From Candidatus Omnitrophota bacterium (lineage in GTDB: Bacteria > Omnitrophota > Gorgyraeia > JAHJTE01), in assembly GCA_040753675.1 (NCBI GenBank), contig JBFMEB010000004.1:4288-68287 (forward strand): a stretch of 64,000 nt of DNA, read 5' to 3'. Shown one piece after another: positions 34,026 through 49,088 of this stretch; positions within the stretch are counted from its first letter, which is position 1; each line of letters begins with the position of its first letter. The position numbers and the translations under genes were made by a program. The notes beneath the pieces were generated by a model. It was not told the DNA's origin, made no database searches, and saw only the letters and a list, made by a program, of their open reading frames with translations.

Positions 34026-35035
34026 TATTTTATACTCACCTCTTTAAATAACGCGAATAATTTGCTGAACGGCACATACCAACGGGAGAGCTTGCCGAGT
34101 TCGCCTTTTAATTTCATCTTGCCTTGCATAACCGCAACAAAAGGATCGAGTTTGCCTAAAAATACCAATTTCCAAATATCAGCCGGAGCAGAAATTATAA
34201 ACGGCGCATTGTCATTGAAATCTAACTTTTTAATCTCGCCTTTTTCAAAAGAGAATTTAAAGGCATTATCTGCGCCGTCTATCTTAATCGCCAACTCTAA
34301 GGTCAAGTCTAACTCCTTGCCTTTATTGCGGATATATTCGTCTTTATTAACCAAATCTACTATTGCCTGAATATGCTCCTTAGAGAACATGGTATAAATA
34401 TTATCGCTGCCTAACGTCTCTTTCAATTCCTTATCAAGCTCATCCAGAATTCCTTTCTTAAAAATCCTAGCCACTGCTACTACTTTTACTGCCTCTTCCA
34501 AAGTTTCGATTAAACTCAGCGCATCTTTAAAATTCTGGGCAATTGAAACCACGCCGTGATTCTTAAGCACTACCTGGTTATTACATTTTAACGCCTCGAT
34601 TACAAGTTCAGGCCTGCTAACAGCCGGTGTGTCCTGTTCGATAACCGGAATGTTACCTAAAGAAAGCTTGGTTTCAAAAGTTAAGGCTTTAATATCAGAG
34701 TAAAGGGCAAAATAGGCATTTATTAAAGCCGGGTGGCAATGCACAATAACCTTATTATCAGGAAAGCTTTTATATACAAGATGGTGCAGCGGAAATTCGC
34801 TGGTAAGTCGGCTGTTTGCTAAATCTTGCGGCCTATTTAGATTTACCTTGATGATATCATAATTTTTTAAGTCTGATAGTGAGGCGCCGGTTGAGGTAAC
34901 CAGTATATTATCCTGGTCTAACTTAGCGCTTAAGTTTCCCGCGCGGCCGACCACTAAGCGCATCTGGTATAGTCTTTTTCCTATATAAATTATTTCCTCT
35001 TTCAGCTCTTTTTCCCTGCCAAAAAACATATTCAA
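34025..35035 (-). CDS. Class II aldolase/adducin family protein fused to a C-terminal SCP2 sterol-carrier domain (candidate methylthioribulose-1-phosphate aldolase)
   Basis: 336 aa; N-terminal LVVGRAGNLSAKLD...HCHPALINAYF (class II aldolase metal ligands) and a C-terminal KLDPFVAVMQGKMKLKGELGKL (SCP2). Confidence 0.7.
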   Translation of the reverse strand: MNMFFGREKELKEEIIYIGKRLYQMRLVVGRAGNLSAKLDQDNILVTSTGASLSDLKNYDIIKVNLNRPQDLANSRLTSEFPLHHLVYKSFPDNKVIVHCHPALINAYFALYSDIKALTFETKLSLGNIPVIEQDTPAVSRPELVIEALKCNNQVVLKNHGVVSIAQNFKDALSLIETLEEAVKVVAVARIFKKGILDELDKELKETLGSDNIYTMFSKEHIQAIVDLVNKDEYIRNKGKELDLTLELAIKIDGADNAFKFSFEKGEIKKLDFNDNAPFIISAPADIWKLVFLGKLDPFVAVMQGKMKLKGELGKLSRWYVPFSKLFALFKEVSIK

Positions 35036-35955
35036 ATCTCCAAATAAATATGCTTAGTAATCAAATCCCTGGGGGTAATATCAAAAGCAGGATAATATGC
35101 CTTTATCCCTTTCGGGGCAAGCCGAACCCCGTCAAAATTTAATAATTCCTTTTGCGGCCTAATCTCGATTTTAATATCTTTACCGGTTTTTGTTTTTGAG
35201 AAAGGAGGACATAAAACATAAAAGGGTATCTTAAAATGGTTGGCTAAAACCGCTATCTGATAAGTCCCGATTTTATTGGCAATGTCGCCATTCTGCGCTA
35301 AATGGTCTGCGCCAACAATAACCTTATCAATCTTACCCTCTGACATAACCTGGCCTATCATATTATCCGTAATTAAGGTAACCGGGAAATCCTCTCTTTT
35401 TAATTCCCAGGCGGTTAAGCGCGAACCCTGTAAATAAGGTCGAGTCTCCGGAACAAAGAAACTAACCTTTTTATTGTCTTTTCGGCAAAATTCTCCTATA
35501 AGAGGCATAAGCCCGCTGACATTGCAATAGGTCAATATCACATCATTATTTTTAATCAAAATACTTGCTTTCCTTGCCTGCTCTATGCGCTTACTTTTAA
35601 GCATTTCTAAAAATCCGAATATATTTTTTTCCAGATCAGCTCCTGATTTAACCCAGCCTAAAACTAAATCAGTTAGATATTTAAAAGACAATGTTGGCCG
35701 GCTCGTATTTATTGCCTTGGCAATATGCTCTAAATGCGAAAAACTCCTATCCTTAGCTAATTCTAAAATAAAAACATACATTACCAAAAGCACCTGGCCT
35801 ACTGCGCGCGTCTTCATCTCTTTTATAGCCTTAACTGCCTGTTTATAATCCTTTATTTTTATATAGGATAATTTAAATGGGAGGCTAGTTTCATCTAAGA
35901 CATATATAATATTACCCTTTAACTGAACTGGCCAAAAAAGCGGCGATAGTCTCAT
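35032..35955 (-). CDS. mtnA: S-methyl-5-thioribose-1-phosphate isomerase (eIF-2B alpha/beta/delta family)
   Basis: 307 aa; IF-2B family fold with VIVGADHLAQNGDIANKIGTYQIAVLANHFKIPFYV. Confidence 0.8.
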   Translation of the reverse strand: MRLSPLFWPVQLKGNIIYVLDETSLPFKLSYIKIKDYKQAVKAIKEMKTRAVGQVLLVMYVFILELAKDRSFSHLEHIAKAINTSRPTLSFKYLTDLVLGWVKSGADLEKNIFGFLEMLKSKRIEQARKASILIKNNDVILTYCNVSGLMPLIGEFCRKDNKKVSFFVPETRPYLQGSRLTAWELKREDFPVTLITDNMIGQVMSEGKIDKVIVGADHLAQNGDIANKIGTYQIAVLANHFKIPFYVLCPPFSKTKTGKDIKIEIRPQKELLNFDGVRLAPKGIKAYYPAFDITPRDLITKHIYLEI

Positions 35956-36701
35956 TTGCCCTCAAGTCTTTTTACAGTTTCTAAAGCAATTTCTATTAAT
36001 TTACTTTCCGCCATATAATAAAGCGGATTCATAAAGCCCATCTCTCCGGTAATCACATTATCGCTTACTGCCAAAATAGAGCCAGCTTTAATCTTGTAAA
36101 CTGCGGCAATAGTTAATAGACTTGATGATACCATATCTACGGATATTGCACCCATTTTTCGTTTTGCCTCAACTACCTCTCTGGTTTCTCGCAATAACGC
36201 ATCCGTTGTCCAAACAATGCCCCGATGGATATTCGTGCCTAAATCCTTTGCCACGTTAAAAAGTGTATCTGAAATTTTCTTATCTGCGGCTGTTTTGAAA
36301 CTATTATCAACATAATAAGGCGTAACCCCGTCTCCTCTTATAACCTCGTCAGCAATTACCAAATCGCCAATCTTTATATCTTCGCTCAATGACCCGCAAG
36401 TTCCTATGCGTATAATATTACTGATTTGCGCATTACACATGACTTCTGCTGTAATAGCTGTATCAGTAGAAAACCTTCCGCCATTCATTGCTGTGATTTT
36501 AATCCCCTGATATGAGCCGGTATGCATGGTATATTCCATAAAGGAAAAGTTTCTGACCGGATTTTCTAATTTTTTAATCAATACCTCTAATCTGTCTTTT
36601 GGCCCAGGAACAATTGCGTATTTACCAACATCCTGCGGCCGCAACTGCACCATATCAGTTAAATCTTTTCCAGTCAGATGAATATCCTTTTTCATCTCCA
36701 T
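35952..36701 (-). CDS. Nucleoside phosphorylase family 1 protein (candidate 5'-methylthioadenosine phosphorylase)
   Basis: 249 aa; PNP/UDP-1 fold (YAIVPGPKDR, IRIGTCGSL, DMVSSS). Assignment as MTA phosphorylase is by context, next to mtnA and the aldolase. Confidence 0.6.
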   Translation of the reverse strand: MEMKKDIHLTGKDLTDMVQLRPQDVGKYAIVPGPKDRLEVLIKKLENPVRNFSFMEYTMHTGSYQGIKITAMNGGRFSTDTAITAEVMCNAQISNIIRIGTCGSLSEDIKIGDLVIADEVIRGDGVTPYYVDNSFKTAADKKISDTLFNVAKDLGTNIHRGIVWTTDALLRETREVVEAKRKMGAISVDMVSSSLLTIAAVYKIKAGSILAVSDNVITGEMGFMNPLYYMAESKLIEIALETVKRLEGK

Positions 36702-37103: not shown

Positions 37104-38012
37104 TCATCCAAGCACCCTCTCTAAATTCCCTCCTAAAATATCTTCTTTATCTTCTTGTTTTATAGCCAAATCTTTGACTGCCTTAATTGAACCAATTATA
37201 TCCTTTTTTGCTGGCCAGTCGCTACCCCAAAGAAGATGTTTGGGTCCTAATAATTCTAAGGCGGAAAGGAAATTTGTCTTAGATATATCTCCGCTTGTAT
37301 CTACATAAATATTTTTTAAATAAGCAGTAGGGTTATCTTTCAAATCTTTTACGAAATTTATGCCTCTTAACATTTTATAGGTTGCGTCAAAACGCCCAGC
37401 AATATGGCAAGTAATTCCTCCAAAATAGGCAAATATAAATTTGACATCGCAATATTTACGCAAGATATCAGACATCAAAAGCTTTCCTATACAAATGGTG
37501 GTATCAAAGATATATTCAACTACCGGAGTAAGCAAGGGATCATTAACTCTTTCATAACCGATAGGATTAATTATCTGAGAGTGCACAAAAATTGGTATTT
37601 CTTGTTTCAGGGCAATGTCATATATAGGAATAAATGAATTATCATCCAAATATACGCCGTTATAGCTGCTAGCCAGACAGATTGCCTTAAATCCTAAGCC
37701 TTCTCTTGCGCGTTTTAATTCAACTATCATCTGCTCTCGGTTACCATCTGGTAAAACAGCAGCAGCAATGAATCTTTTAGGATAACGCTTAATAATCTTT
37801 GCTATATTATCATTATAAATATGGGCTAACTTCTCCTGCCCACCCAGTTTTAGATGCGCATCAGAAGTTGGATATGTTAACAGCGCCTTATCGATGCCTG
37901 CCTCATCCATCATCTTAAGATGGGCTTCTATATCTGACCAGGCCTTAGAAAAAAAGTGGGCATTTGCTACAATTTCTTCTGGCAACCAATGGCTATGGCT
38001 ATCAATAATCAT
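37104..38012 (-). CDS. Amidohydrolase-2 family metal-dependent hydrolase/decarboxylase
   Basis: 302 aa; N-terminal IIDSHSHW metal-binding HxH, a TIM barrel, and a C-terminal WGSDWP. Confidence 0.75.
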   Translation of the reverse strand: MIIDSHSHWLPEEIVANAHFFSKAWSDIEAHLKMMDEAGIDKALLTYPTSDAHLKLGGQEKLAHIYNDNIAKIIKRYPKRFIAAAVLPDGNREQMIVELKRAREGLGFKAICLASSYNGVYLDDNSFIPIYDIALKQEIPIFVHSQIINPIGYERVNDPLLTPVVEYIFDTTICIGKLLMSDILRKYCDVKFIFAYFGGITCHIAGRFDATYKMLRGINFVKDLKDNPTAYLKNIYVDTSGDISKTNFLSALELLGPKHLLWGSDWPAKKDIIGSIKAVKDLAIKQEDKEDILGGNLERVLG

Positions 38013-38404
38013 TTGTGGTCCGTGCTTTTTAGAATTCGCTCAATCATCTCTTTCTCATAAAGAGATTTTATTTCTTTTAAGCCTGCTCTTCCTAATACCT
38101 TAACTATGGCCTTTTCAATCGCCTTTAATTTAAATACTAGGAAACTATATTGCGGATGGAAAGCCTTATCCTCAAATTTTAAATTAAGCCCCTCTTTTTC
38201 CTTATTTTCGATATAAAGAGAAAACTCATCAATAAATTTACCTATTTCTTTTTTACTTCTGTGCCTTTTTAATTCTTTTAGCAAAAATTTATCAATCGAA
38301 AGTTGAGTAAATTTCCTCTCAATTCTGTCTAAGGATTCTTTAGTAGTCTTATACAACCAGATTAAATACCTTTTCTTTAAATCTTTTATATCTGCTTTTT
38401 CCAT
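38009..38404 (-). CDS. Hypothetical protein
   Basis: 131 aa, charged and helical. No motif recognised. Confidence 0.4.
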   Translation of the reverse strand: MEKADIKDLKKRYLIWLYKTTKESLDRIERKFTQLSIDKFLLKELKRHRSKKEIGKFIDEFSLYIENKEKEGLNLKFEDKAFHPQYSFLVFKLKAIEKAIVKVLGRAGLKEIKSLYEKEMIERILKSTDHK

Positions 38405-38407
38405 TTC

Positions 38408-38639
38408 AAATGAGCAGACAACTTATGGAAGCTTTAGCGACGTAAGTTGTAGACCTTCGGTCGTCTGCGAATTTGACCCAGCACTTATTTTACTGCCAGT
38501 CTTAGCATTAAAATTTTAAGTTTTATTAAAATAAAAACTTCCTTTTTATTACCCAGCTTTTTAGTAAAATAAGTGCTGGGTAAGTTCGGCCAGACAACTT
38601 ATGTCGTCCTTTATGATCCATAAGTTGTGGCCTCACTTA
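38408..38639. mobile_element. MITE-like repeated intergenic element, copy 3
   Basis: Termini AAATGAGCAGACAACTTATGGAAG ... CATAAGTTGTGGCCTCACTTA, with an internal long stem ACCCAGCACTTATTTTAC / GTAAAATAAGTGCTGGGT. It abuts the start codon of the 38009-38404 gene. Its TAA (within CACTTATT) is the stop codon of the SDR gene. Confidence 0.6.
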
Positions 38640-39413
38640 TTCCTTAGGATGGTCTTGTTTATAGGGTATTACTGGTTTTGTCCAAGGCGTCTGCTGGTTA
38701 ATTACGGCAATTTCCAAAGGGCAGACATTGGCCGGAACAGTTAAGGCAAATCTTACCGCATTCTCAATCGCTTCCGTAGTCATAAGGCGCGAGCTATCGG
38801 TAGTTATTTCTTGCAATTTCCCGGTAAGGTCTGTGTCGGTTACACCCGGCAATATCGAAGTTACTTTTATGCCGTGGTCGCGTAATTCCCAAAATAGCCC
38901 TTTAGAAAAAGCCCGTAAACCGACTTTCAAGGAACTATAGACAATGAAATTCCTTGGTAAGGGATCGCAAAGAGTAGAACCGGAAACCATATTAATAATT
39001 GCACCCTCTTTGTTTTTTATCATATCATTTATGACTAAACGGATAAGCCGAACATAACCCAAATAGTTTGTATGGCTGAGTTTTTCAAAATCTTCAAGGG
39101 GCTGTTTTTCAAATGGGTACTGGCTAGAGACTCCGGCGTTGTTTATCAAGATATCTATTGAATGAAATTTCTCTTTAGTTTTATTAACCAAATTCTGGAG
39201 GTCTTCTAATTTAGTTACATCGCAAGGAATAGTTAAAATCTCTACTTTGTATTTTTTCTTAATTTCATCTGCTGTTTCAATTAGAGGGCCTTCCTGACGC
39301 GCGGCAAGACTCAAATTAATGCCTAAACTTGCCACGGTATTAGCTATGGCCTTTCCTATTCCCCGACTTGCACCGGTAATGATTGCGGTTTTTCCTTTTA
39401 GATTAACACTCAT
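38637..39413 (-). CDS. SDR family oxidoreductase (ketoreductase-like)
   Basis: 258 aa; TGASRGIGKAIA, NNAG, and the S...YxxxK catalytic spacing. Confidence 0.85.
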   Translation of the reverse strand: MSVNLKGKTAIITGASRGIGKAIANTVASLGINLSLAARQEGPLIETADEIKKKYKVEILTIPCDVTKLEDLQNLVNKTKEKFHSIDILINNAGVSSQYPFEKQPLEDFEKLSHTNYLGYVRLIRLVINDMIKNKEGAIINMVSGSTLCDPLPRNFIVYSSLKVGLRAFSKGLFWELRDHGIKVTSILPGVTDTDLTGKLQEITTDSSRLMTTEAIENAVRFALTVPANVCPLEIAVINQQTPWTKPVIPYKQDHPKE

Positions 39414-39428
39414 AATTCCTCCGATTTT

Positions 39429-40550
39429 TCAATTATTGCCTAATAATGGTTTTGTTAAGGATAGCAAACATACCAGGCATATACCAAAAATAACGAAACC
39501 AAAATTAAAATTCCTCTGCATCAATAAGCCGCCTAAGCCTACTCCGATGCTGCCGGAGAGGAAACGTATACTGCTGTTTAGACTTGCCGCTTCATTTAAG
39601 AATTCTTTTGGCAAATCAGTAAGCAAAGTCGAGATACCAGCGTGATTAAAAGTCCAACCCAGACCCCAGACAATCATAATCAGCGCTAAAACAATAATAG
39701 GCCATTTAGCGGTTAGTAAAAATATGCTGATAGTCATTAAGATAAGGCCTAAATTTACAATTTTTAGCCGTCCAACAAAATCAGAAAACCAACCACCCAA
39801 TACTTCTCCAAATATTCCACTTAAGCTTACCGAGGTAATAAGCATGCTAATTGACAATTGGCTAAAGCTGTATCTAACTGAAAAATAAACTCCTAACCAT
39901 TGCTGCAAGCCATGATAAAACAAACTAATTAAAAATATGTAGGCGAAGATAAAGATTATTTTCTTGGCTTTAAAGAGTGTTAAATAATTAAACTTAAAAC
40001 CAATGGCAATTTCTTTAAAACTTGGGAGATAAAAATAAATATGTATCCAGAGAATAAAACCCAATATCGCCGGGATTAAAAAAATTAGCCGCCAAGGTAT
40101 AAAACCAGTTAAAAATAGTCCTACGAGTGAAGCCACAAATGTACTTGAAAAAAAAGTGCCCACTAGCTTACCCCTATTAGTATCTGAAGCATAATGGGAA
40201 ATCAATATAAGAACAAGAGGTATAACCGAGGCGCCAAATAAGCCCATAAAGAATCTGGCAATAAAGAGCATATTTAGATCTTGAGAAAGAGCAGCTATGA
40301 GATTTGCTAAGGAAAACAGGAAAAAACAAACTAATTCTATTTTTTTTGCATCAATTACTCTAACCAATGGACCGTAAAAAAGCGCAGCCAGGCCATAAGG
40401 AAGCATGTAAAGCCAAATTATATTGCCGGCAATAAACTGTGAAGTTTTGAATTCCTGAGAAATCGATGGAATCAAAGCTGAACAGGCGGCAACATTAAAA
40501 GAAAGAAGCGCACCCTCTAAACAAAGTATTATAAATGTGGTTTTCTTCAC
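39429..40550 (-). CDS. MFS transporter
   Basis: 373 aa with about 12 predicted TM helices. Confidence 0.75.
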   Translation of the reverse strand: MKKTTFIILCLEGALLSFNVAACSALIPSISQEFKTSQFIAGNIIWLYMLPYGLAALFYGPLVRVIDAKKIELVCFFLFSLANLIAALSQDLNMLFIARFFMGLFGASVIPLVLILISHYASDTNRGKLVGTFFSSTFVASLVGLFLTGFIPWRLIFLIPAILGFILWIHIYFYLPSFKEIAIGFKFNYLTLFKAKKIIFIFAYIFLISLFYHGLQQWLGVYFSVRYSFSQLSISMLITSVSLSGIFGEVLGGWFSDFVGRLKIVNLGLILMTISIFLLTAKWPIIVLALIMIVWGLGWTFNHAGISTLLTDLPKEFLNEAASLNSSIRFLSGSIGVGLGGLLMQRNFNFGFVIFGICLVCLLSLTKPLLGNN

Positions 40551-40987
40551 TCGCCGGCTTCTTTTTCGATAACGGATTTAAAAATCTTTAAATTTTCCTG
40601 GGAATGCTTATTTATAAAACCCTCTATTTGGTTGTCATTGAATTTTGCTTTTTCATCCATCTGGAAATGCTGTATCCAAGTCATTTCTACGCCTTCCGGT
40701 TTAGGCGTATAAAGCCAGATAATCTTCATATATTTAAAAGGAAATTTTGGCTCTTCTCTTTCTGAATAAGTAAAATATTTTTCTTTAAAAAGCAGCCGCC
40801 AAGACTGCCAGGATTTATCCTCATCATCAGTCAGACGAAAGGTTATCTTGTTCCCTTCTTTTTTTAAAACCTCGGATTTTTTATATTCTCCACCAAATAA
40901 TTCTGTCCAGCGCGGTATATCATTAGATATATCAAAAACTTTATTGTAATCTGCATTGATGAGAATTGAATTACAGGTATGTCCCAT
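40547..40987 (-). CDS. SRPBCC (Bet v1-like polyketide cyclase/aromatase-type) domain protein
   Basis: 146 aa; size and beta-grip/helix pattern consistent with the SRPBCC superfamily. The domain call is by inference. Confidence 0.55.
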   Translation of the reverse strand: MGHTCNSILINADYNKVFDISNDIPRWTELFGGEYKKSEVLKKEGNKITFRLTDDEDKSWQSWRLLFKEKYFTYSEREEPKFPFKYMKIIWLYTPKPEGVEMTWIQHFQMDEKAKFNDNQIEGFINKHSQENLKIFKSVIEKEAGE

Positions 40988-41008
40988 GAATTTCTCCTTT
41001 CAGTAAAC

Positions 41009-41809
41009 TTATAAGATAGCGACCACCCTCGCCCAGCCAGCACCGGCATTTCTAATCTTTACCGGAAAGCAACTTACCTTAAATCCAAAGGCTACAGGTA
41101 TTTTATCCAGATTAGCCAATCTTTCAATATGCGCATATTCGCGCCTGCGTCCTAAAAAATGCGATGGCCAGAGAACAGATTTATTTTTGGTTTTTAGAAA
41201 TTCCGTAAACATATCCGGGCAAGGTCGATCAAGGCCCAAGGTATCAATACCTATCATTTTAATGCCAAAATCCAGAAGATATTCGATTGCTTCTGGTAAG
41301 ACGCCAACGTATTTATTCACATATTCAGGTTTTCCTATAAATTTATCAGCACCTGTATTAAATAAAATAATGTCTAGGGGCTTTAATTTATAATTAATTT
41401 TATTTAGCGCGTTAACCACATCTTTATGGTTAATAATCTCAGGATATTTTTTATACTTAAAATCCAAAACTACTCCATCGCAATAGCACCACTCTAACGG
41501 CAAATCATTTATATATTTAGAGGGTTTGCCTTCGGATTTGCTTCCATAGTGATATGGCGCATCAACATGGGTGCCCATATGTACTGAAGAATTTACAATC
41601 TCTAAAGAAAGGAGTTCCTCATCAGGAACATCACCCGGCGCTATTAATCTCTCGCCTCTTTTAAACTTTGCCTCAGATACCCTATCTTTACTCATCAGCA
41701 CCCAATTTAGATGTTCAACTCCCTGGCTGTGGCTTATCCGCTGGATATTCGCAGCATGAGTCTCATCTAAAGTATCGTCAATCGGCAGACTCAAGTCAAT
41801 TATTTGCAT
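41009..41809 (-). CDS. Cyclase family protein (kynurenine formamidase-like fold)
   Basis: 266 aa; hallmark HMGTHVDAPYH motif. Confidence 0.75.
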   Translation of the reverse strand: MQIIDLSLPIDDTLDETHAANIQRISHSQGVEHLNWVLMSKDRVSEAKFKRGERLIAPGDVPDEELLSLEIVNSSVHMGTHVDAPYHYGSKSEGKPSKYINDLPLEWCYCDGVVLDFKYKKYPEIINHKDVVNALNKINYKLKPLDIILFNTGADKFIGKPEYVNKYVGVLPEAIEYLLDFGIKMIGIDTLGLDRPCPDMFTEFLKTKNKSVLWPSHFLGRRREYAHIERLANLDKIPVAFGFKVSCFPVKIRNAGAGWARVVAIL

Positions 41810-42045
41810 TATGCACCTAATTTAAGATTAATAATCTTCTCGATATCATTAACACTCGAAAATTTTGTAACTTCTTTTGCGCTCAATTTAATATTAAATG
41901 CCTTCTCCAAAGCAATTACTGCCTCTACCATTTCCGTAGAATCAACGCCTAACCCAGACTCAAGGGCTATATCATCTTTTAATTCCTCAGGTCTAATCCT
42001 TAATAGTGTAATTAGGGTATCTTTTATTTTTGCTTTAGTATCCAT
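41809..42045 (-). CDS. Acyl carrier protein
   Basis: 78 aa; LGVDSTEMVE with a Ser at the phosphopantetheine attachment position. Confidence 0.85.
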   Translation of the reverse strand: MDTKAKIKDTLITLLRIRPEELKDDIALESGLGVDSTEMVEAVIALEKAFNIKLSAKEVTKFSSVNDIEKIINLKLGA

Positions 42046-42064
42046 ATATTTGTCTCCTTCAATA

Positions 42065-43540
42065 TCAGACGTGCACTTCGCCTTTTGTCGCGCCTGCCTC
42101 CCATTTGCCTACACCAGCCATAACATCCTGAAAACAAAGTTTGGCCAATATATCAAAATTACTTTCCATAATTCTGTTTATCCGGCCTGGCTTAGAATAA
42201 AATTCCCGCATGCACCAAGAACCTAACCTTCCTAATTCTTCGATAGATAAATGGTCAGTAGGAATAACCGGATGCAAAAAATCCCATTGGCTAAAATCTA
42301 TTTTCTTGGGATTAATCCAGTTTTTCTTCAGGCCTATTCTCCACATGGGAGAATTCGGTGCCGGTGTAACATAGCCAATCCAAAGGATGTCCGGGTCAAC
42401 CTCATCAGTAAACTCATATCTCTGTTTTATAATCTGTTCATTATCATAGTCGAAACCCATCATAATATCAGCAACAACTGCAATATCGTTTTTGCACAAA
42501 ATCTCAATTGTCTTTTTAATCTGGTCAATTGTGATACCCTTGGCGATTTTCTTTAATTCTTCCGGAGTGGTAACTTCTATTCCAAACACGCCGATAAAAA
42601 GCCCCGTCTCTTTCATAAGAGGCAATATGGACTCGCAATTAACCCAATCTATTGCCCTGCCCAAAGACACCCATTTAACCGGTATGCCCTTCTCTTTTTT
42701 TAATTCACAGAATTTCTTTACTCTCGCCGGGTCAACATTGAAATTATCATCCTGGATAACTACGACTTTAACTCCGTATTTTTTATGCAAAAGCTCTAGC
42801 TCTTCTATCACCCTTTCTGGCGACTTTGCCCGCCATTTAAGAAAGTCGGAAGGTGAACGCGGGTCATATTGGTCCCATTCATAGCAAAAAGTGCAGGCAG
42901 AAGGGCATCCCCGCGATGTTACCATATCTACAAATGGTTTCCAATGAGTATGGCCAACGTATTTATCCATAGGAAACAGATCATAGGCTGGCAAGGGCAG
43001 CTTATCCAGCTCTTCTAATAATGGCTTGTGCGGGCCCATAACAATCTTGCCGTTGATTCGGGAAGTAACTCCCGCTACATCTTTTAAATTTTCACTTTTA
43101 TCAATTGCATTAATCAAATCATAAAACGATTCTTCTTCACCCATAACCACAAAATCAACAGCTGGATTTTCTTCTAATGTAGGAACTGGCATTGCAGAAT
43201 ACCAGAGCCCGCCGAATATAATTTTAACCTTAGGCAGTACTTGTTTTATTCTGGGAGCTATTTCGTTAAAATGCCGCAAGACGCCGTAACCGCCGTAAGA
43301 ATGAAGCTGCTCGCCTAAAACAACTATATCCGGATTTTTCGCCTTTACTTTAGCAACCATTTCGTCCATAGGTATTTCCAACGCCTTGCCGTCTATAACC
43401 TCCACATCTTCATAGCCCTTCTCCCGTACAAAGCTCGCCCAGTGGGCGTACAATTGATTTGGAGCAACATGTTTTCCATGCGTTGCCCAAGAACCAACCT
43501 TAGGCATAACGAACAATATCTTCATTTTAACCTCCCTCAA
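42065..43540 (-). CDS. B12-binding-domain radical SAM enzyme (class B radical SAM)
   Basis: 491 aa; N-terminal cobalamin-binding Rossmann region, then CPSACTFC (CxxxCxxC). Confidence 0.85.
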   Translation of the reverse strand: MREVKMKILFVMPKVGSWATHGKHVAPNQLYAHWASFVREKGYEDVEVIDGKALEIPMDEMVAKVKAKNPDIVVLGEQLHSYGGYGVLRHFNEIAPRIKQVLPKVKIIFGGLWYSAMPVPTLEENPAVDFVVMGEEESFYDLINAIDKSENLKDVAGVTSRINGKIVMGPHKPLLEELDKLPLPAYDLFPMDKYVGHTHWKPFVDMVTSRGCPSACTFCYEWDQYDPRSPSDFLKWRAKSPERVIEELELLHKKYGVKVVVIQDDNFNVDPARVKKFCELKKEKGIPVKWVSLGRAIDWVNCESILPLMKETGLFIGVFGIEVTTPEELKKIAKGITIDQIKKTIEILCKNDIAVVADIMMGFDYDNEQIIKQRYEFTDEVDPDILWIGYVTPAPNSPMWRIGLKKNWINPKKIDFSQWDFLHPVIPTDHLSIEELGRLGSWCMREFYSKPGRINRIMESNFDILAKLCFQDVMAGVGKWEAGATKGEVHV

Positions 43541-43658
43541 TCGCTAAAACGCAAAATAAGTTATTACAATATCTAAAATAACACCGCTAAATCGCAAAAA
43601 TTTATTTTGCGTTCTCTGCTGACTAAATTATATTTCTTGTAGTTTTGCGTTTTTGCGG
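43541..43658. repeat. Palindromic repeat spacer (CGCTAAAACGCAAAAT x2 direct, then ATTTTGCGTT / GTTTTGCGTTTTTGCGG inverted)
   Basis: Read directly between the rSAM start and the KS-beta stop. Confidence 0.45.
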
Positions 43659-44888
43659 TCATGCTTTCTCCACTACCAATACTGAATTAATCCCGCCTCT
43701 GCCACGAGAAATTATCAACGCCTTATTTATCTTATAATCAATTGCTTCTCTCTTGATATAATTTAGACCTGCTTGAACCGGTTCTGCCAAATTTATAGTA
43801 GGCGCCACTACACTATGTTCCATAGAAAGAATGGTAATTATCAAATCAACAGCACCTGATGCGCCAAGCAGATTGCCAAACATTGATTTAGGGCAACTTA
43901 TAGGTATATCTTTAACTCTTTTGCCAAAAACATTTTTTATTGCTTCTAATTCTGAGTTATCCCAAATGTCTAATGCCAAACCATCCAAGCTTATATAATC
44001 TATTTTATCAGGTTCAACTTTCGCATCTATTAGTGCCATTTTAATAGACCTTGCCAATTCTTTACCGTCTGGGGATGGGTTAATCCTATCAGCTCCATCA
44101 CAGGTAGTGCCATAACCGCTGATAAAACCCCAAATATTGGCGCCTCTCGCTTTTGCACGGTTAATAGACTCCATAACAACAATGCCTGCGCCCTCTCCTA
44201 TAACACATCCGTCGCGCTTATTATCAAAAGGCCTGTATGCGCTTTGCGGGTTAAGATTATTTTTAGAAAGCGCGCCGTAACTATTGCAACATAAAAGCGC
44301 GTAAGGAGTAACCGGGGCCTCCATGCCGCCGGCTAAAATCATATTAAGTTTATTCTTGCTCAAAACCTTACGGGCATAGCCAATTGCCATTAAAGAACTT
44401 GCCCGGTCAGCAACAACTGTCTTACTAAATCCTTTTATACCATAATAAATAGAAACCTGGCCTTGCGGCGCAGCCGGAAACCAGGCCGAGGCCATATAAG
44501 GAGAAACGCCATTGCGGCCCTCAAGATATAAATCGCGCAACTCTGTTTCTGCATACATCCACCCGCCTAAGGCATTACCTAAGAAAATTCCTATGAGATT
44601 AGGATCTTCATTTTTAATGTCAATACCTGCATCTTCTAAGGCAAGCTCTGAGGCAATAAGAGCCATATGAGAAAATGCGTCTATTTTTTTTAGAAGGCGT
44701 TCTGAGATATTAGAATATTTTTCCAAATCGTCAATCTGGCCGGCTATATGCGAAGGGTATTTACTTGACTCGAAACGGGTAATTTCTTTTATAAAAGACC
44801 TTCCCGCTTTTATATTTGCCCAAAACTGGCGCTTACCAATACCAGAAGGCGCAACCACGCCAATGCCTGTAACAGCGATTTTCTTCAT
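43659..44888 (-). CDS. Ketosynthase-like protein lacking the catalytic triad (KS-beta / chain-length-factor-like)
   Basis: 409 aa thiolase fold. Active-site positions read ADRASS (Arg in place of the Cys of TACxxG), GYGTTCDGAD (Tyr in place of the His of NAHGTST), and KSMFGNLLGASGA (Asn in place of the His of KSxxGH). Confidence 0.75.
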   Translation of the reverse strand: MKKIAVTGIGVVAPSGIGKRQFWANIKAGRSFIKEITRFESSKYPSHIAGQIDDLEKYSNISERLLKKIDAFSHMALIASELALEDAGIDIKNEDPNLIGIFLGNALGGWMYAETELRDLYLEGRNGVSPYMASAWFPAAPQGQVSIYYGIKGFSKTVVADRASSLMAIGYARKVLSKNKLNMILAGGMEAPVTPYALLCCNSYGALSKNNLNPQSAYRPFDNKRDGCVIGEGAGIVVMESINRAKARGANIWGFISGYGTTCDGADRINPSPDGKELARSIKMALIDAKVEPDKIDYISLDGLALDIWDNSELEAIKNVFGKRVKDIPISCPKSMFGNLLGASGAVDLIITILSMEHSVVAPTINLAEPVQAGLNYIKREAIDYKINKALIISRGRGGINSVLVVEKA

Positions 44889-45040
44889 ATTAAATGGTTA
44901 AACTCTAAACTCAAAACTCTAAATCCTAAATAAACCCAAAAGCAAAAATAAAAATGTCCAAAATAGCATTTTTGAGTTTTATGTTTTAGGTTTTGGATTT
45001 GTTTAGAGTTTAGGATTTGTGATTTAGGATTTAATTTCAT
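44889..45040. repeat. Heptamer-periodic palindromic array (AAACTCT/AAACTCA/AAATCCT direct, then AGGATTT/TAGGTTT inverted)
   Basis: Read directly between the KS-alpha and KS-beta genes. Confidence 0.5.
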
Positions 45041-46312
45041 TCATCCACCGTATCTCCTCATCACCAATGATGAATGTATTCCCGAAAATCCACTTGAGGT
45101 TTTGAGAATTGTATTTACTTTCTTCTCTCTCGCCACATTTGGAATATAATCTAAATCGCAAAGAGGGTCTTTTTCTTCCTGATTTATTGTGGGAGGCAGA
45201 ATATTTTCCTTAAAAATCATAGAACATACTGTCAACTCTACTGCATTTGCCGCAGCCAAAGGATGGCCAATCATAGATTTAAGCGAGCTAATAGGCAATT
45301 TATAAGCATAATCGCCAAAAACCGTCTTGTAAGCATTTGTTTCAAATATATCATTCATGCGAGTAGAAGAACCATGGGCATTAATATAATCTATATCTTT
45401 AGGCCTGAACCTCGCATCTTCCAAAGCCAAGCGTATGCAATTTGTCATTGCTGTCCCGTCTTGCGGAAGATCGGTCATATGAAAGGCATTACAACTTGTG
45501 CCAAAACCAAGAACCTCGCAATAAATACGAGCTGAACGCTTTAATGCATGATTTAATTCCTCTAGCACTAATATGCCTGCGCCCTCAGATAAGACAAAAC
45601 CATCGCGCTTATTATCAAAAGGCCGGCTTGCTGCAGCTGGATTATCATTACGAACAGATAAAACATTAACCACATCAAACGCGCCAAAGGTAATTGGTGT
45701 AATTGGCGCTTCAGCTGCGCCGCTAATCATAACATCTTGTTCTCCATCCTGAATTGTCTCAAAAGCAAAACCAATAGAATCTGTACCAGCAGTGCAACCA
45801 GTAGACAATGTATTGCATATCCCTTTTAAACCATATTTGGCGCTAATCTCGATAGACGGAGTATTAAACATTGCTGCATCGTATAAATCAGGCCTTGCTT
45901 TCCCTGGATCGATGGCTTTCTTACCGTCTTCCGTCACTAATGCAAATTCCTCTTCCATATATTTTGTTCCGCAAATAGCATTAGCAAGGCAGACGCCGAT
46001 GCGCTGATGGTCTTCTTTAGAAAAGTCTAAGCCGCTATCCTTTATTGCCATCTCACCTGCCAGGACAGCAAACTGCACATATCTATCCATACGCATAACA
46101 TCATCGTGACTAAGGCCTAATTTAAACGGATCAAAATCCCTGACCTCTGCGGCAATTTTGGTATTAAATACAGAAACGTCAAAGCCATCAACTAATTCAA
46201 TCCCTGATTTACCTTTAATCATCGCGTTATAAACATTTTCCTTGCCTATGCCGTTTGGGGATATGACGCCGATACCAGTAATTACCACTCTTCGTTTTTT
46301 CATATTAATCAA
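45041..46312 (-). CDS. Beta-ketoacyl synthase (KS-alpha; FabF/type II PKS KS family) with intact Cys-His-His triad
   Basis: 423 aa; catalytic Cys in CNTLSTGCTAGTDSIGFA, NAHGSSTRMND, and KSMIGHPLAAA. Confidence 0.85.
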   Translation of the reverse strand: MINMKKRRVVITGIGVISPNGIGKENVYNAMIKGKSGIELVDGFDVSVFNTKIAAEVRDFDPFKLGLSHDDVMRMDRYVQFAVLAGEMAIKDSGLDFSKEDHQRIGVCLANAICGTKYMEEEFALVTEDGKKAIDPGKARPDLYDAAMFNTPSIEISAKYGLKGICNTLSTGCTAGTDSIGFAFETIQDGEQDVMISGAAEAPITPITFGAFDVVNVLSVRNDNPAAASRPFDNKRDGFVLSEGAGILVLEELNHALKRSARIYCEVLGFGTSCNAFHMTDLPQDGTAMTNCIRLALEDARFRPKDIDYINAHGSSTRMNDIFETNAYKTVFGDYAYKLPISSLKSMIGHPLAAANAVELTVCSMIFKENILPPTINQEEKDPLCDLDYIPNVAREKKVNTILKTSSGFSGIHSSLVMRRYGG

Positions 46313-46899
46313 TCTTCTACCCTTGTTACTTTAAAAACTATATTCCCTCCGTCTGGACAGGTAACTGTATCGATTGAGTCAGGGTCACTCATAAAGAAAA
46401 ATTTTGCGCCGAAATTAAGCGCAAAAAGCGCCGGGAACGCTGTATGGAATGCAGCTCCGCAAAAGTTAGGTATACACTTGAGGCCTTGAGTTTCCCATTT
46501 ATCTCCTACCTGGTAACCAAAGGTGCATTTGCCTTTTGCTTTAACCACCTCAATAAGCATCTTCTTAGGTTTGGGACCCTTGAAATTTTCATCTTTGGGA
46601 ATAAATTCGACTTTGCCATTTTTATCCAAAATTTCTGCCTTAAACTCTAATTTTCCACCGTCAGGGCAAGTAACCAATAAAGAACGCTGATTATCCCGAA
46701 AGGGGAATTTTGCGCCAAAACTTAAGGCATATATAACCGGAAAAAGAGCATGGGCGAGTCCTAAGCAAAAATGTTTTGGAGGATGAGTAAAATCTTCCAA
46801 AATTAACTCATCGCCTTTCTTATATCCGTGATAACAATGACCAGCAACTTCGTTTACAGTAAGTTTTAACTTTGGAAATGGTGAATTAATCTCGCTCAT
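46309..46899 (-). CDS. Hypothetical protein made of two tandem ~95-aa Cys/His-containing repeats
   Basis: 196 aa. Repeat 1 (..CYHGYKKGDEL...HFCLGLAHALFPVIYALSFGAKFPF....VTCPDGGKLEFK) aligns with repeat 2 (..CTFGYQVGDKW...NFCGAAFHTAFPALFALNFGAKFFF....VTCPDGGNIVFK). Confidence 0.5.
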   Translation of the reverse strand: MSEINSPFPKLKLTVNEVAGHCYHGYKKGDELILEDFTHPPKHFCLGLAHALFPVIYALSFGAKFPFRDNQRSLLVTCPDGGKLEFKAEILDKNGKVEFIPKDENFKGPKPKKMLIEVVKAKGKCTFGYQVGDKWETQGLKCIPNFCGAAFHTAFPALFALNFGAKFFFMSDPDSIDTVTCPDGGNIVFKVTRVED

Positions 46900-46900
46900 A

Positions 46901-47905
46901 TTAATTAAATAACTCCTTTGTGTTATTAATCAATTCTTCTTTAGTAAAAAATTTATTTTTTCGTTCAACTTCATGAACCATATCAACTAATTTCTTATTT
47001 AAGAATGCATTAATATTATTTTCCTCTGCAATTCTTACAAATTCACCATTTATATAATCTATTTCTGAAAGCCTGCCCCGTTTAATGCTCTGCAATATTG
47101 AGCCATACAATGGTTCCTTGCTTAAATTAGCCATAATAGAAGAAAATATCTTGGCTGCTTCTAGATTAGAGAGAGAAGTTAATTTAGTCAATCTTTCTAA
47201 CGGAAAATCAGGCAATGAAACTAAATTTATGCCGGCTTTATTGATAACTTTAAGCCCTTCTTTCCATATTGCAATACTTATGCGGCTAATCTCAATATCA
47301 GAAAAGGCCTCTTGCATACTCACGCCTAATATTGCGCTTATACAGTTATTTGCATTTACAAACATTTTCAAATACTTCATTCCTTTTATGTTATCAGAAA
47401 CAATTACCGGAAAAATTTTATTTAGGATTCTACTAATTTCTGTTACTATTTCGTCATTTTTATTAAAAGTCCTGCCGATTATCCAACTACCTTCAAAATT
47501 ATGCACTACCTTAGCCGGCTCTAAATACGTAGAGCCAAACATAACAATACTTGAGATAATATTATCTTTGGAGATATATTTTGCAACTATTGTTTCTGCC
47601 TGAATGCCGTTCTGGGTTGTCAATATAAGCGTATCTTTAATCAGATTTATATTTTCTTTTAATGCTGTCTCTATATCCTGTGTCTTAGTTGCCAAAATTA
47701 TTAAATCAGGCCTGTGGTTTAATTTTTCATAAGCCTCTATTCCTATTTTAAAATCTCCCTTTACTCCTGAGATCTCTAAGCCCTTTTCTTTTATTGCCTT
47801 AACTGAACTCTTATGGCCGACTAAAGATATCTCTTCGCCCTTAGATTTTAAATATCCAGCTACAAGACAACCAATTGCTCCAGCTCCAATTACTGCTATT
47901 TTCAT
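46901..47905 (-). CDS. Ketopantoate reductase (ApbA/PanE) family NAD(P)-dependent oxidoreductase
   Basis: 334 aa; MKIAVIGAGAIGCLVAGYL Rossmann start and ApbA-family length. Confidence 0.75.
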   Translation of the reverse strand: MKIAVIGAGAIGCLVAGYLKSKGEEISLVGHKSSVKAIKEKGLEISGVKGDFKIGIEAYEKLNHRPDLIILATKTQDIETALKENINLIKDTLILTTQNGIQAETIVAKYISKDNIISSIVMFGSTYLEPAKVVHNFEGSWIIGRTFNKNDEIVTEISRILNKIFPVIVSDNIKGMKYLKMFVNANNCISAILGVSMQEAFSDIEISRISIAIWKEGLKVINKAGINLVSLPDFPLERLTKLTSLSNLEAAKIFSSIMANLSKEPLYGSILQSIKRGRLSEIDYINGEFVRIAEENNINAFLNKKLVDMVHEVERKNKFFTKEELINNTKELFN

Positions 47906-47908
47906 ATT

Positions 47909-48187
47909 AAATGAGCAGATAATTTATGGAACGTAAGTGACATAAATTATAGCCCCGCCCTTTTATTAATCCATATTTAGACGAACCCAGCCCAAAAGGG
48001 CGGGGCGTCTGCGAATTTAACCCAGCACTTATTTTACTAAAAAGCTGGGTAATAAAAATTAAGATTTTATTCAAAGAAAATTTATTTTATTTCAAATTAA
48101 AGCCTGGCAATAAAATAAGTGCTGGGTAAGTTCAGCCATACAACTTATGTCGTTCTTACGAACTTCCATAAGTTGTGGCTTCACTTA
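47909..48187. mobile_element. MITE-like repeated intergenic element, copy 2
   Basis: Termini AAATGAGCAGATAATTTATGGAACG ... TTCCATAAGTTGTGGCTTCACTTA, with internal CCCCGCCC..GGGCGGGG hairpin and the ACCCAGCACTTATTTTAC / GTAAAATAAGTGCTGGGT long stem. Its TGA (within CTTCACTT) is the stop codon of the 48181-48438 gene. Confidence 0.6.
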
Positions 48188-48438
48188 GGAAAGCCATACT
48201 TTTTATAATCAAAACCTGTCTGCTCTAAGAGCCGAACCATCATGCTATAAAATGGGGACGGCACGTCTGAAAAAAATGCGCTTATAACATCCAATTCTTC
48301 AACTAAAGAAGAATTCCTAAGCCTCGCATTTTCTTCTGCCCTTTTAGTAACAACCTGCTCAGTAATGTGCCGATGGAAAACAGGAATCTTTGAAATCATC
48401 AGTTTGAGCTTTTCTTGAGTTTTGCTTTCCCAGTCCAT
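48181..48438 (-). CDS. Small hypothetical protein
   Basis: 85 aa. No motif recognised with confidence. Confidence 0.4.
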   Translation of the reverse strand: MDWESKTQEKLKLMISKIPVFHRHITEQVVTKRAEENARLRNSSLVEELDVISAFFSDVPSPFYSMMVRLLEQTGFDYKKYGFPK

Positions 48439-48453
48439 AGGCCTATCCTCTTT

Positions 48454-48481
48454 AAAATATAGTAAAATTTTACTATATTTT
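48454..48481. promoter_or_regulatory. 28-bp perfect palindrome AAAATATAGTAAAATTTTACTATATTTT (candidate PadR operator)
   Basis: Read directly. It lies between the padR stop and the first gene of the downstream cluster. Confidence 0.45.
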
Positions 48482-48490
48482 CCTATTTAG

Positions 48491-48994
48491 TCAAGACAAA
48501 AACTCAAGCAAAGACTCTATCTCTGATTCTAATAATTTGAGGTTGTGCCGAAGGATATTTATAAGGTTGGATGGTTTTGGTTTTGTAGTCTTGATTAAAT
48601 CTAATAGTTGGCCTTTAAGCCGCCTTAACAGGTTTAACCTTGTATTAAGCCGCCTCTTAGCCAGGCGTGGACTAAGGTAGGAAATAAAATAAAGACCGAG
48701 GTCAATGCTAAAAAATGGCCGTTCTATTCTAATAAGACTATCCTGAAGAAGCCTTTTAAACCTAACTTCTCCTCTAGGGGTGAGGCTATATACGTATTTT
48801 TCAGGCCGTTTACCTGCCTGAGTGGTGCTTTTCTTAATAAGGCCTTGTCTTTCTAATTGCCTAAGCGGATAGTAAATCGAGGTAGAATCAACTTTGAAAA
48901 ATGTGTTAATTTCTTCTTTAATTAAGCGCTTTATTTCATAGCCATGTTTAGGGCCGCCTTTAAGCAGGCCTAAGAAAAGAAGTTCATTTTCCAT
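48491..48994 (-). CDS. PadR family transcriptional regulator
   Basis: 167 aa; N-terminal winged helix LLFLGLLKGGPKHGYEIKRLIKEEINTFFKVDSTSIYYPLRQLERQGLI. Confidence 0.85.
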   Translation of the reverse strand: MENELLFLGLLKGGPKHGYEIKRLIKEEINTFFKVDSTSIYYPLRQLERQGLIKKSTTQAGKRPEKYVYSLTPRGEVRFKRLLQDSLIRIERPFFSIDLGLYFISYLSPRLAKRRLNTRLNLLRRLKGQLLDLIKTTKPKPSNLINILRHNLKLLESEIESLLEFLS

Positions 48995-49011: not shown

Positions 49012-49082
49012 AGCGGGCAACGGGGATCGAACCCGTGTAGGTGGCTTGGAAGGCCACTGCACTACCGCTGTGCTATGCCCGC
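49012..49082 (-). tRNA. tRNA-Gly (anticodon TCC)
   Basis: Manual fold: acceptor GCGGGCA/TGCCCGC, D-arm GCAC..GTGC, anticodon stem GTGGC/GCCAC with loop CTTCCAA, T-arm ACGGG-TTCGATC-CCCGT, discriminator T. Confidence 0.85.
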
Positions 49083-49088
49083 ATGGCC

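Follow-up and report, generated by a model that had tools for sequence, protein, structure and literature searches.

In a 64,000-nucleotide stretch of DNA from a Candidatus Omnitrophota bacterium (contig JBFMEB010000004.1 of assembly GCA_040753675.1, forward-strand positions 4,288 to 68,287; hereafter the window), 14 open reading frames (ORFs), all co-directional on the minus strand, run from position 48994 down to 37104. We consider it likely that this locus encodes a polyketide synthase (PKS) of type II with ancestral architecture, which would make an aromatic, polyphenol-type polyketide under anoxic conditions by the mechanism outlined below, including the salvage of a by-product of radical S-adenosylmethionine (SAM) chemistry. 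The aromatic PKS reading is based on the clades in which the two ketosynthases (KS) fall, on a TcmN-like aromatase/cyclase (ARO/CYC) with its Tyr and Arg, on the synteny of the whole block and on the homology of seven components with a clostrubin-type locus. The genes are tightly packed, with spacings of –4 to 275 nt and several overlapping stop and start codons. A first-pass annotation had listed these genes and read them as a type II PKS; Pfam and NCBIfam profile searches of the window proteins, on which our domain calls are based, found all 14 ORFs where it had placed them and confirmed each domain that it had named (Table 1), and its general reading is supported by the KS-alpha and chain-length factor (CLF) clades, by the TcmN-like ARO/CYC and by the inheritance of the cluster as a block across the Omnitrophota.

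The core of the cluster is a pair of ketosynthase homologues. KS-alpha keeps C173, H313 and H350, aligned to C163, H303 and H340 of Escherichia coli FabF, so that the intact C-H-H triad claimed for it is correct. In KS-beta all three catalytic residues are indeed replaced, as had been reported, but by R162, D302 and N339 rather than by R/Y/N, and all of 121 homologues examined carry the same triplet. In the alignment Arg162 stands where the actinorhodin and S. lavendulae CLFs have Gln, so the protein lacks the active-site Gln typical of these. The first-pass annotation had rightly seen that Arg stands in place of the CLF Gln; it is not a peculiarity of this locus, since Arg at the position of the lost Cys recurs in the KS-beta homologues of Clostridium, Bacillus, Ktedonobacter and Deltaproteobacteria, and from these alignments the exchange is taken to be a trait of the non-actinobacterial CLF clade. 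A neighbour-joining tree of 39 sequences (200 bootstraps, E. coli FabB as outgroup) included five FabFs, the KS pairs of the window, of other Omnitrophota, of Deltaproteobacteria, of loci L073 and L075 (L numbers denote individual loci), of Clostridium and Bacillus, and of the actinorhodin and S. lavendulae systems, together with AntD and single-domain representatives. KS-alpha was placed in a clade with the actinorhodin, S. lavendulae and Clostridium KS-alpha and AntD, and KS-beta in a clade with the actinorhodin and S. lavendulae CLFs, each with 100% bootstrap, and the five FabFs remained outside both; grouping of the pair with FabF/FabB, which had been named beforehand as a way to overturn the PKS reading, was thus not observed. 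In the PDB, KS-alpha ranked the actinorhodin KS-alpha first (1TQY_A, 382 bits), followed by Photorhabdus AntD (371) and the best FabF (362); its alignment with the actinorhodin protein is nearly gap-free and it has a loop five residues longer than that of FabF, shared with the actinorhodin KS-alpha and AntD.

The high similarity to FabF models and to FabF structures in the PDB, as well as the very high conservation across the lineage, could be expected if both ketosynthases were housekeeping FabF paralogues surrounded by unrelated genes. This is hardly conceivable: KS-beta is devoid of the three catalytic residues in every homologue, the tree excludes FabF with 100% support, genes for FabH, FabD, FabG, FabZ and FabI are not in the cluster, and in three phyla polyketide cyclases are inherited along with the cluster. 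Moreover, neither protein reaches the 493.75-bit cut-off of the FabF equivalog TIGR03150 (472.4 bits for KS-alpha, 374.5 for KS-beta). The housekeeping identity was therefore rejected, on the tree placement and on the dead KS-beta triplet, and from sequence the pair is assigned as a type II PKS KS-alpha and CLF, not FabF.

The SRPBCC protein gave seven significant PDB matches, all of them TcmN and WhiE ARO/CYC chains (E ~1e-21), the two other matches listed having E values above 0.05. Its Y35, S62 and R64 align with Tyr35, Ser67 and Arg69 of TcmN, of which we take Tyr35 and Arg69 to be the catalytic residues in the numbering presumably used in the structural work on the TcmN ARO/CYC. Domain searches, on which the earlier assignment of the SRPBCC and cyclase ORFs had been made to depend, recovered both (PF03364/PF10604 and PF04199, respectively), and the PF04199 protein has an intact metal motif, H77MGTHVDAPYH87. 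It is predicted to occupy the position of an OxyN-type second-ring cyclase, mainly from its conserved adjacency to the SRPBCC gene: the order cyclase-then-SRPBCC is also found in the clusters of Clostridium, Priestia and Deltaproteobacteria and in L073 and L081, in six cluster types in all. The amidohydrolase matches ACMSD, LigW and the gamma-resorcylate and dihydroxybenzoate decarboxylases, so that non-oxidative decarboxylation of an aromatic acid is its most likely function, and orthologues occur in the clusters of Clostridium and Deltaproteobacteria and in L073 and L081.

The precedent of clostrubin, mentioned in the first-pass annotation, was borne out by sequence searches, in which a locus of C. 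beijerinckii and C. puniceum was the closest named relative. Its order is KS-alpha, KS-beta, a 175-aa protein, PF04199 cyclase, SRPBCC, a holo-ACP synthase (ACPS), CMD, DUF362, DUF169, a small ORF, a second ACPS, Amidohydro_2, acyl carrier protein (ACP), two hydrolases and KSIII, where the 175-aa protein is a fusion of a TIGR04076 domain with an ACP and another TIGR04076 domain is encoded by the small ORF. The two loci have in common a strictly anaerobic host, seven components (identities in Table 1), the CLF Arg, two TIGR04076 domains and a PF04199 cyclase followed directly by a monodomain TcmN-type SRPBCC. Unlike the window cluster, the clostridial one is without a B12 radical SAM enzyme, the ApbA reductase, the short-chain dehydrogenase/reductase (SDR) and the phosphorylase/isomerase/aldolase set described below, and has instead KSIII, two ACPS genes, CMD, DUF362, DUF169 and two hydrolases; furthermore, it is known from a few species, in contrast to the lineage-wide version of the Omnitrophota. 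The combination KS-CLF-ACP-TcmN-OxyN has been described in the dendrubin work as the ancestral type II architecture, with the clostridial ClrB in an early-branching clade (PMC7693217).

The same core is shared by the Photorhabdus ant/AQ-256 cluster, the dendrubin den cluster and the plasmid clusters of Bacillus and Priestia (PMC7693217). The latter two resemble the window in their KS pair (43–49% identical in Bacillus), cyclase and SRPBCC, and that of Priestia also has an AMP-binding gene inside; they differ, being aerobic, in having cupins and class I methyltransferases, in Bacillus also a FAD oxidoreductase, and in missing TIGR04076, the radical SAM enzyme, the ApbA reductase and the salvage-like set. 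With the actinobacterial minimal PKS (1TQY; TcmN) the window has in common the KS-alpha and CLF clades and a TcmN-type cyclase with Tyr35/Arg69, and the actinorhodin CLF also has an Asp at the first His position, as in the window KS-beta. In contrast to the actinobacterial systems, the CLF has Arg and not Gln, O2-dependent oxygenases and class I methyltransferases are absent, TIGR04076, the ApbA reductase, the B12 radical SAM enzyme and salvage-like genes are added, and the host is an anaerobic member of an uncultured phylum related to the Planctomycetes-Verrucomicrobia-Chlamydiae (PVC) superphylum.

The cluster is inherited as a unit. A protein search with KS-beta gave one 100% identical protein, from a Candidatus Omnitrophota MAG, and at least 119 next-best 90%-identity clusters at 79–85% identity, the named ones belonging to Omnitrophota/Omnitrophica and most being metagenome sequences. 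With each GTDB species represented by a single genome, a scan gave ~55 loci with KS-beta at 62–84% identity, the next matches being at most 36% identical. Nearly all of these loci are labelled Omnitrophota, with a few metagenome-assembled genomes (MAGs) automatically labelled ‘uncultured Planctomycetales’. By tblastn of all window proteins, the gene order is the same throughout the ~55 species-level Omnitrophota loci, so that the arrangement is not due to chance, and homologous loci were co-localised in every relative examined, a check that the first-pass annotation had proposed. A few members are less constant. The gene for the PadR regulator is facultative, being found in under half of the related loci, and that for the major facilitator superfamily (MFS) transporter in about half; the 131-aa hypothetical protein is confined to Omnitrophota loci, and the 85-aa protein is also found in L051, L052 and L074 at 45–50% identity. 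Many genomes carry an additional CBM_11-like gene and CrcB/DUF190 genes, which the window does not have; no remnants of the CBM_11-like, CrcB or DUF190 genes were found in the intergenic gaps of the window.

Relatives outside the Omnitrophota were sought among 1.84 billion 50%-identity representatives, followed by a name look-up; giant type I PKSs with several KS domains made up most of the matches listed, and single-domain matches alone were used. The nearest KS-beta relatives are from Deltaproteobacteria MAGs (59%), from another lineage (47%) and from C. beijerinckii/C. puniceum (46%), and farther ones from Chitinivibrionales (41%) and Ktedonobacter (39%); a metagenome scan with the L073-type KS-beta gave two loci. 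The Deltaproteobacteria MAGs have the same cluster, with variations: the SDR is missing from the Deltaproteobacteria and L073 versions, aldehyde:ferredoxin oxidoreductases stand in its place in those of Deltaproteobacteria and L074, and amine-oxidase-like flavoproteins are added in Deltaproteobacteria and L073. The aldehyde:ferredoxin oxidoreductase genes, of the tungsten type, lie at 4851–6824 and 14177–16156 of the Deltaproteobacteria locus L071 and at 1222–3093 of L074, an MMPL transporter gene is found upstream in L071, and aldehyde/acid redox chemistry recurs in related clusters. A 2023 catalogue included Candidatus Omnitrophica among the phyla with KS-CLF pairs and did not describe the cluster itself (PMC10132072); beyond that phylum name, our literature searches found nothing on the composition and conservation of the Omnitrophota cluster.

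Two proteins are encoded ahead of KS-alpha in the clusters of Omnitrophota and Deltaproteobacteria and in those of L073/L074. The first, an ApbA/PanE-family oxidoreductase, clears the cut-off of the TIGR00745 subfamily and no equivalog cut-off, and is a candidate polyketide or quinone reductase. The second is a tandem TIGR04076 protein, whose halves are 41% identical to each other with conserved Cys/His positions in both, and whose gene overlaps the KS-alpha start by 4 nt. The two domains are encoded by separate genes in L073/L074, and in Clostridium by the ACP fusion and a second single-domain gene (11260–11787 and 15638–15946, respectively, in the C. beijerinckii locus L069); the fusion connects the TIGR04076 family with the ACP in this clade of PKSs. 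With the fusion as a query, three homologous proteins were returned. For the window protein there was no sequence match in the PDB and no convincing fold match, and the literature search on TIGR04076 gave no functional description. In the divergent Omnitrophota locus L052 a DUF4440 (NTF2-like) protein (7910–8374) replaces the doublet upstream of KS-alpha; in the related L051 the doublet is absent without a replacement.

The B12-binding-domain radical SAM enzyme is not among the standard components of a type II PKS. It has a C212xxxC216xxC219 motif, an N-terminal PF02310 B12-binding domain and a PF04055 core, from which the use of cobalamin is predicted. The earlier claim of a B12-binding radical SAM enzyme was correct, but C-methylase is not the best guess for its activity: the best curated match is BchE (TIGR02026, 198.8 bits against a cut-off of 481.35), followed by HpnJ (150.6 against 578), and the best methylase model, HpnR, gives 101.8 bits, also below its cut-off. 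With the BchE/HpnJ group the protein shares the domain order, a near full-length alignment and the best curated matches, but its scores are far below the cut-offs, its context is that of a polyketide and not of bacteriochlorophyll or hopanoids, and its PDB relatives are distant. Oxidative cyclisation and ring rearrangement are the reactions known or proposed for BchE and HpnJ. Because these two outscore the methylase models, an O2-independent oxidative or ring-forming step is favoured as the predicted reaction, and C-methylation is the second choice. Our literature search found no type II PKS with a class B radical SAM enzyme; the one precedent is a class C, HemN-like radical SAM methylase (PMC9714029). 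The organism appears equipped to handle corrinoids, which is relevant to a B12-dependent enzyme, as a Wood-Ljungdahl corrinoid module at 58439–63918 (–) encodes an AcsE-like pterin-binding methyltransferase, three CdhD-family corrinoid Fe-S proteins, a CooC-like ATPase and RACo; the low GC content and the Wood-Ljungdahl genes noticed at first reading are thereby confirmed, the GC content being 35–42%. Distant B12-binding radical SAM genes (23% identical) were also seen near KS/KS-beta pairs in a metagenomic lineage (L075, 20519–21242) and in a Spirochaetales MAG (L062, 14090–15292), and the association of a KS pair with a radical SAM enzyme may be recurrent among anaerobes.

A further possibility connected with this enzyme is that the cluster makes an unusual lipid, such as a ladderane-like, cyclised or methyl-branched fatty acid, by means of FabF-derived ketosynthases, the ACP, reductases and the B12 enzyme. 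This has been proposed for the anammox ladderane loci, in which a TIGR04072 radical SAM enzyme is likewise co-localised with a FabF-like KS and an ACP in an anaerobe of the PVC superphylum. The scores of both ketosynthases on the FabF model (472 and 374 bits), a weak match of the radical SAM enzyme to TIGR04072 (‘lipid biosynthesis B12-binding/radical SAM’) and the hints of hydrophobic molecules given by an SCP2 domain encoded next to the cluster and by the Deltaproteobacteria MMPL transporter are consistent with it. In addition, antiSMASH-based surveys report expressed ‘ladderane’ biosynthetic gene clusters in Omnitrophota and Desulfobacterota MAGs, perhaps this very locus (bioRxiv 10.1101/2022.12.20.521206). 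The TIGR04072 score, however, fails by a wide interval (70.5 bits, cut-off 360), the KS pair falls in PKS clades and not among FabFs, and the TcmN-type ARO/CYC, the cyclase and the aromatic-acid decarboxylase homologue are conserved core members; moreover, Pfam and NCBIfam found no dehydratase or enoyl reductase among the cluster proteins, and the SDR is dispensable in related clusters. A lipid product is quite improbable on this evidence.

Next to the amidohydrolase, five more minus-strand genes probably extend the functional unit of the type II PKS to ~31039. Those for the phosphorylase, the isomerase and the aldolase are consecutive and overlapping, and they are followed by the genes for an aldehyde dehydrogenase and for an AMP-forming ligase, which overlap by 16 nt. 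The order aldolase, then aldehyde dehydrogenase, is that of the window and also of L013, L016, L027, L034, L036, L039, L051 and L052. The phosphorylase/isomerase/aldolase/aldehyde dehydrogenase set adjoins the PKS genes in at least three different arrangements: downstream of the cluster in the window, L001–L003 and the Deltaproteobacteria locus; upstream, directly before the radical SAM gene, in the divergent Omnitrophota loci L051/L052; and upstream with the ligase preceding it in L027/L036. The ligase is upstream of the cluster in L014, L024, L026 and L059, with the phosphorylase set downstream in L024. Other flanking genes are not common to different genomes, and it is because this set stays beside the PKS genes across arrangements while the rest of the flanks differ that the predicted unit is drawn to include it; a shared upstream housekeeping synteny that could serve as an identity baseline was looked for and not found. 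Moreover, the radical-SAM-free clusters of Clostridium, Bacillus and Priestia are without the set. The ligase lies near the cluster in three Omnitrophota arrangements, its homologues in the two non-window ones being 54–63% identical, and the 10-kb flanks searched around the Deltaproteobacteria and L051/L052 loci did not contain it; it probably belongs to the unit and may serve to activate the starter. Its best match is a fatty-acid-CoA-ligase subfamily, below the cut-off.

The phosphorylase, isomerase and aldolase correspond to the trio by which 5'-deoxyadenosine from radical SAM enzymes is disposed of through 5-deoxyribose salvage, or the dihydroxyacetone phosphate (DHAP) shunt (PMC6079011, PMC10986504). 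With the DHAP-shunt systems (DrdK/I/A; MtnP-MtnA-Ald2) the window shares an operonic phosphorylase, an MtnA-like isomerase plus an aldolase of class II, but here the phosphorylase is of the Udp/DeoD type, the aldolase carries a fused SCP2 domain, the next genes are those for an aldehyde dehydrogenase and an AMP ligase, and the genes are physically tied to one particular radical-SAM-containing biosynthetic cluster. The aldolase-SCP2 fusion, which is unexpected for a 5-deoxyribulose-1-phosphate aldolase, is kept in most of at least 120 Omnitrophota homologues and in the Deltaproteobacteria locus (L071, 20878–21242); among the matches listed in the homologue search, Omnitrophota orthologues dominate and no new lineages appear; one of the homologues lies on a contig of 2.16 Mb.

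The same five genes could instead be a building-block pathway, in which 5'-deoxyadenosine, or an adenosyl adduct formed by the radical SAM enzyme, would be phosphorolysed, isomerised and aldol-cleaved to DHAP and X-CH2-CHO, the aldehyde being oxidised to an acid that the ligase would activate as the PKS starter, so that a SAM-derived 5'-substituted 5'-deoxyadenosine ends in the polyketide. A fluoroacetaldehyde/fluoroacetate route with the same order of enzymes gives a precedent (PMC6079011). The overlap of the aldehyde dehydrogenase and ligase genes, the resemblance of the 505-aa ligase to medium/long-chain or aryl acid ligases and not to acetyl-CoA synthetase, its persistence near the cluster in three arrangements, the conservation of the SCP2 domain in Omnitrophota and Deltaproteobacteria, suggesting a hydrophobic substrate, and the missing priming Gln of KS-beta are all compatible with such a route. 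The chloroethylmalonyl-CoA route from 5'-halo-5'-deoxyadenosine is a further parallel. Nevertheless, we regard the building-block route as unlikely. The radical SAM enzyme is BchE/HpnJ-like, and the enzymes known to add an adenosyl radical (e.g., MqnE, HpnH) have, to our knowledge, no B12 domain; the ligase was not seen in the Deltaproteobacteria and L051/L052 flanks noted above; and salvage alone accounts for the phosphorylase-isomerase-aldolase trio. An integrated version, in which a SAM-derived, two-carbon-extended acid primes the Gln-less PKS and the resulting polyphenol or quinone is a core molecule of the Omnitrophota made by one anaerobic pathway, is slightly less likely still.

In the type II PKS pathway with salvage that we prefer, the ACP would be converted to holo-ACP, probably by the product of an AcpS gene (PF01648) at 50824–51180 (–), and malonate would be loaded by the housekeeping FabD. 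This gene lies beside PdxJ (51296–52027, –), ~2 kb upstream of the cluster, and is the likely activator because the Bacillus and Clostridium relatives have ACPS genes inside their clusters. There is no KSIII gene in the window cluster and, because KS-beta has Arg and not the priming Gln, the chain is probably initiated by another route, for which the linked AMP ligase is a candidate. The KS-alpha/KS-beta heterodimer would then build an unreduced poly-beta-keto chain, the first ring of which would be closed and aromatised by the TcmN-type cyclase (C9-C14 type) and a further ring closed by the PF04199 cyclase, while the ACMSD/LigW-type amidohydrolase would take off the terminal carboxylate and the ApbA-type reductase and the SDR would carry out reductions. 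The B12 radical SAM enzyme may perform an O2-independent radical step (oxidation/ring chemistry or C-methylation), consuming SAM and releasing 5'-deoxyadenosine, and this inhibitory by-product would be cleared by the phosphorylase, the MtnA-like isomerase, the aldolase and the aldehyde dehydrogenase in the style of the DHAP shunt or 5-deoxyribose salvage. Finally, the MFS transporter and the PadR regulator, where present, would export the product and control the operon, respectively.

Several points weigh against this reading. The polyketide product and the enzyme activities are predictions. KS-beta is without the canonical CLF Gln and its best PDB matches are FabFs (299 bits), with the actinorhodin CLF behind them (251 bits); KS-alpha comes near the FabF equivalog cut-off (472 vs. 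493.75 bits); and the tree is distance-based and of modest sampling, with deep nodes of the CLF clade unresolved. The PF04199 protein is 40–45% identical to ‘cyclase family’ proteins in non-PKS contexts, and since similar proteins occur outside PKS loci its polyketide role depends mainly on the kept adjacency to SRPBCC. We infer that the Clostridium locus and the published clr cluster are the same, because the locus is common to both known producers and ClrB of both is cited (PMC7693217). As for the salvage, the phosphorylase is Udp/DeoD-like and not MtnP-like, the aldolase reaches no curated cut-off, and both the SCP2 fusion and a ligase of the medium/long-chain type are unexpected for plain acetaldehyde/acetate salvage.

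TABLE 1. Genes of the PKS cluster and of the adjacent set in the window, with the range of protein identity across Omnitrophota loci and the identity to the C. beijerinckii/C. puniceum locus.
Feature	Coordinates	Strand	Domain or match	Omnitrophota loci	Clostridium locus
PadR-family regulator	48491..48994	-	PF03551, E 2.4e-16		
Conserved 85-aa protein	48181..48438	-	weak DUF2621 match only	58-81%	
ApbA/PanE-family NAD(P)H oxidoreductase	46901..47905	-	PF02558 + PF08546		
Tandem TIGR04076 protein	46309..46899	-	98.5 bits, cut-off 33; two matched stretches	76-88%	42%
KS-alpha, predicted catalytic ketosynthase	45041..46312	-	PF00109/PF02801; C173/H313/H350	78-86%	47%
KS-beta/chain-length-factor homologue, predicted catalytically dead	43659..44888	-	PF00109/PF02801; R162/D302/N339	70-84%	46%
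B12-binding-domain radical SAM enzyme, BchE/HpnJ-like	42065..43540	-	PF02310 + PF04055	80-88%	
Acyl carrier protein	41809..42045	-	PF00550; Ser36 in GVDSTE motif		36%
PF04199 ‘cyclase’	41009..41809	-	PF04199, 99.8 bits; metal motif HxGTHxDxPxH	53-60%	51%
Monodomain TcmN/WhiE-type aromatase/cyclase (SRPBCC)	40547..40987	-	PF03364/PF10604	70-87%	45%
MFS transporter, putative exporter	39429..40550	-	PF07690; weak efflux-family matches		
SDR oxidoreductase, putative tailoring reductase	38637..39413	-	domain match	72-89%	
131-aa hypothetical protein	38009..38404	-	no family match (Pfam, NCBIfam)	46-66%	
Amidohydrolase_2 enzyme, putative aromatic-acid decarboxylase	37104..38012	-	ACMSD/LigW/gamma-resorcylate decarboxylase type		33%
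Udp/DeoD-type nucleoside phosphorylase, proposed 5'-deoxyadenosine phosphorylase	35952..36701	-	PF01048		
MtnA-like (IF-2B family) sugar-1-phosphate isomerase	35032..35955	-	PF01008; TIGR00524 209.9 bits, cut-off 185.85		
Class II aldolase with C-terminal SCP2 lipid-binding domain	34025..35035	-	PF00596 + PF02036		
NAD(P)-dependent aldehyde dehydrogenase	32541..34025	-	PF00171, E 3e-165		
AMP-forming acyl-CoA/ACP ligase, 505 aa	31039..32556	-	PF00501		

Directly upstream of PadR, at 49012–49918 (–), there are genes for tRNA-Gly, tRNA-Tyr and tRNA-Thr with a small GIY-YIG ORF (49089–49334) between them, and the upstream flanks are different in each other genome examined. An Rfam search of the window matched tRNAs alone, and promoter and terminator scans of the sequence gave counts not above those in shuffled sequence. 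After the AMP ligase, at 30452–31024 (–), there is a gene of the NADPH-dependent FMN reductase family (FMN_red), a distant homologue of which (30% identical) is found inside the L081 cluster, at about 2813–3088, and a gene of the same family occupies the same position in L073 (5897–6730). Elsewhere in the window, the UvrB gene (8229–11876, –; 1215 aa) is interrupted by an intein with LAGLIDADG homing-endonuclease and HTH_3 domains.

Type II PKSs are commonly regarded as patchily distributed, actinobacterial antibiotic machinery; here an early-branching version is conserved in ~55 genomes at species level from a phylum that is uncultured, anaerobic and often ultra-small-celled, and it recurs in MAGs of Deltaproteobacteria. 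The enzymology is not categorically new, and what stands out is the lineage-wide conservation, the anaerobic tailoring set and the hard-wired link to genes predicted to process the SAM by-product. The cluster shows how aromatic polyketides may be tailored without O2: in place of the cupins, flavin oxidoreductases and class I methyltransferases of aerobic relatives it has a BchE/HpnJ-like B12 radical SAM enzyme and an ApbA-type reductase, to which related clusters add aldehyde:ferredoxin oxidoreductases. It identifies TIGR04076 as a conserved accessory protein travelling with this PKS clade, it is one of the rare examples in which putative genes for by-product processing are bound to a single biosynthetic radical SAM enzyme, and it offers compact enzymes for the anaerobic synthetic biology of aromatic polyketides. 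If the starter were SAM-derived after all, this would be a new priming mode for type II PKSs and a lineage-defining metabolite of an uncultured phylum, and the product would be, for example, a redox carrier or an oxygen protectant and not a dispensable antibiotic. That the lineage has retained the cluster at such identity suggests that its physiological role is important, perhaps in redox/oxygen protection or host interaction, and is not that of a sporadic antibiotic. The gene order and 70–88% identity of the core kept in ~55 genomes, together with the recurrence of the cluster in Deltaproteobacteria, suggest that its product matters for the basic biology of the Omnitrophota.

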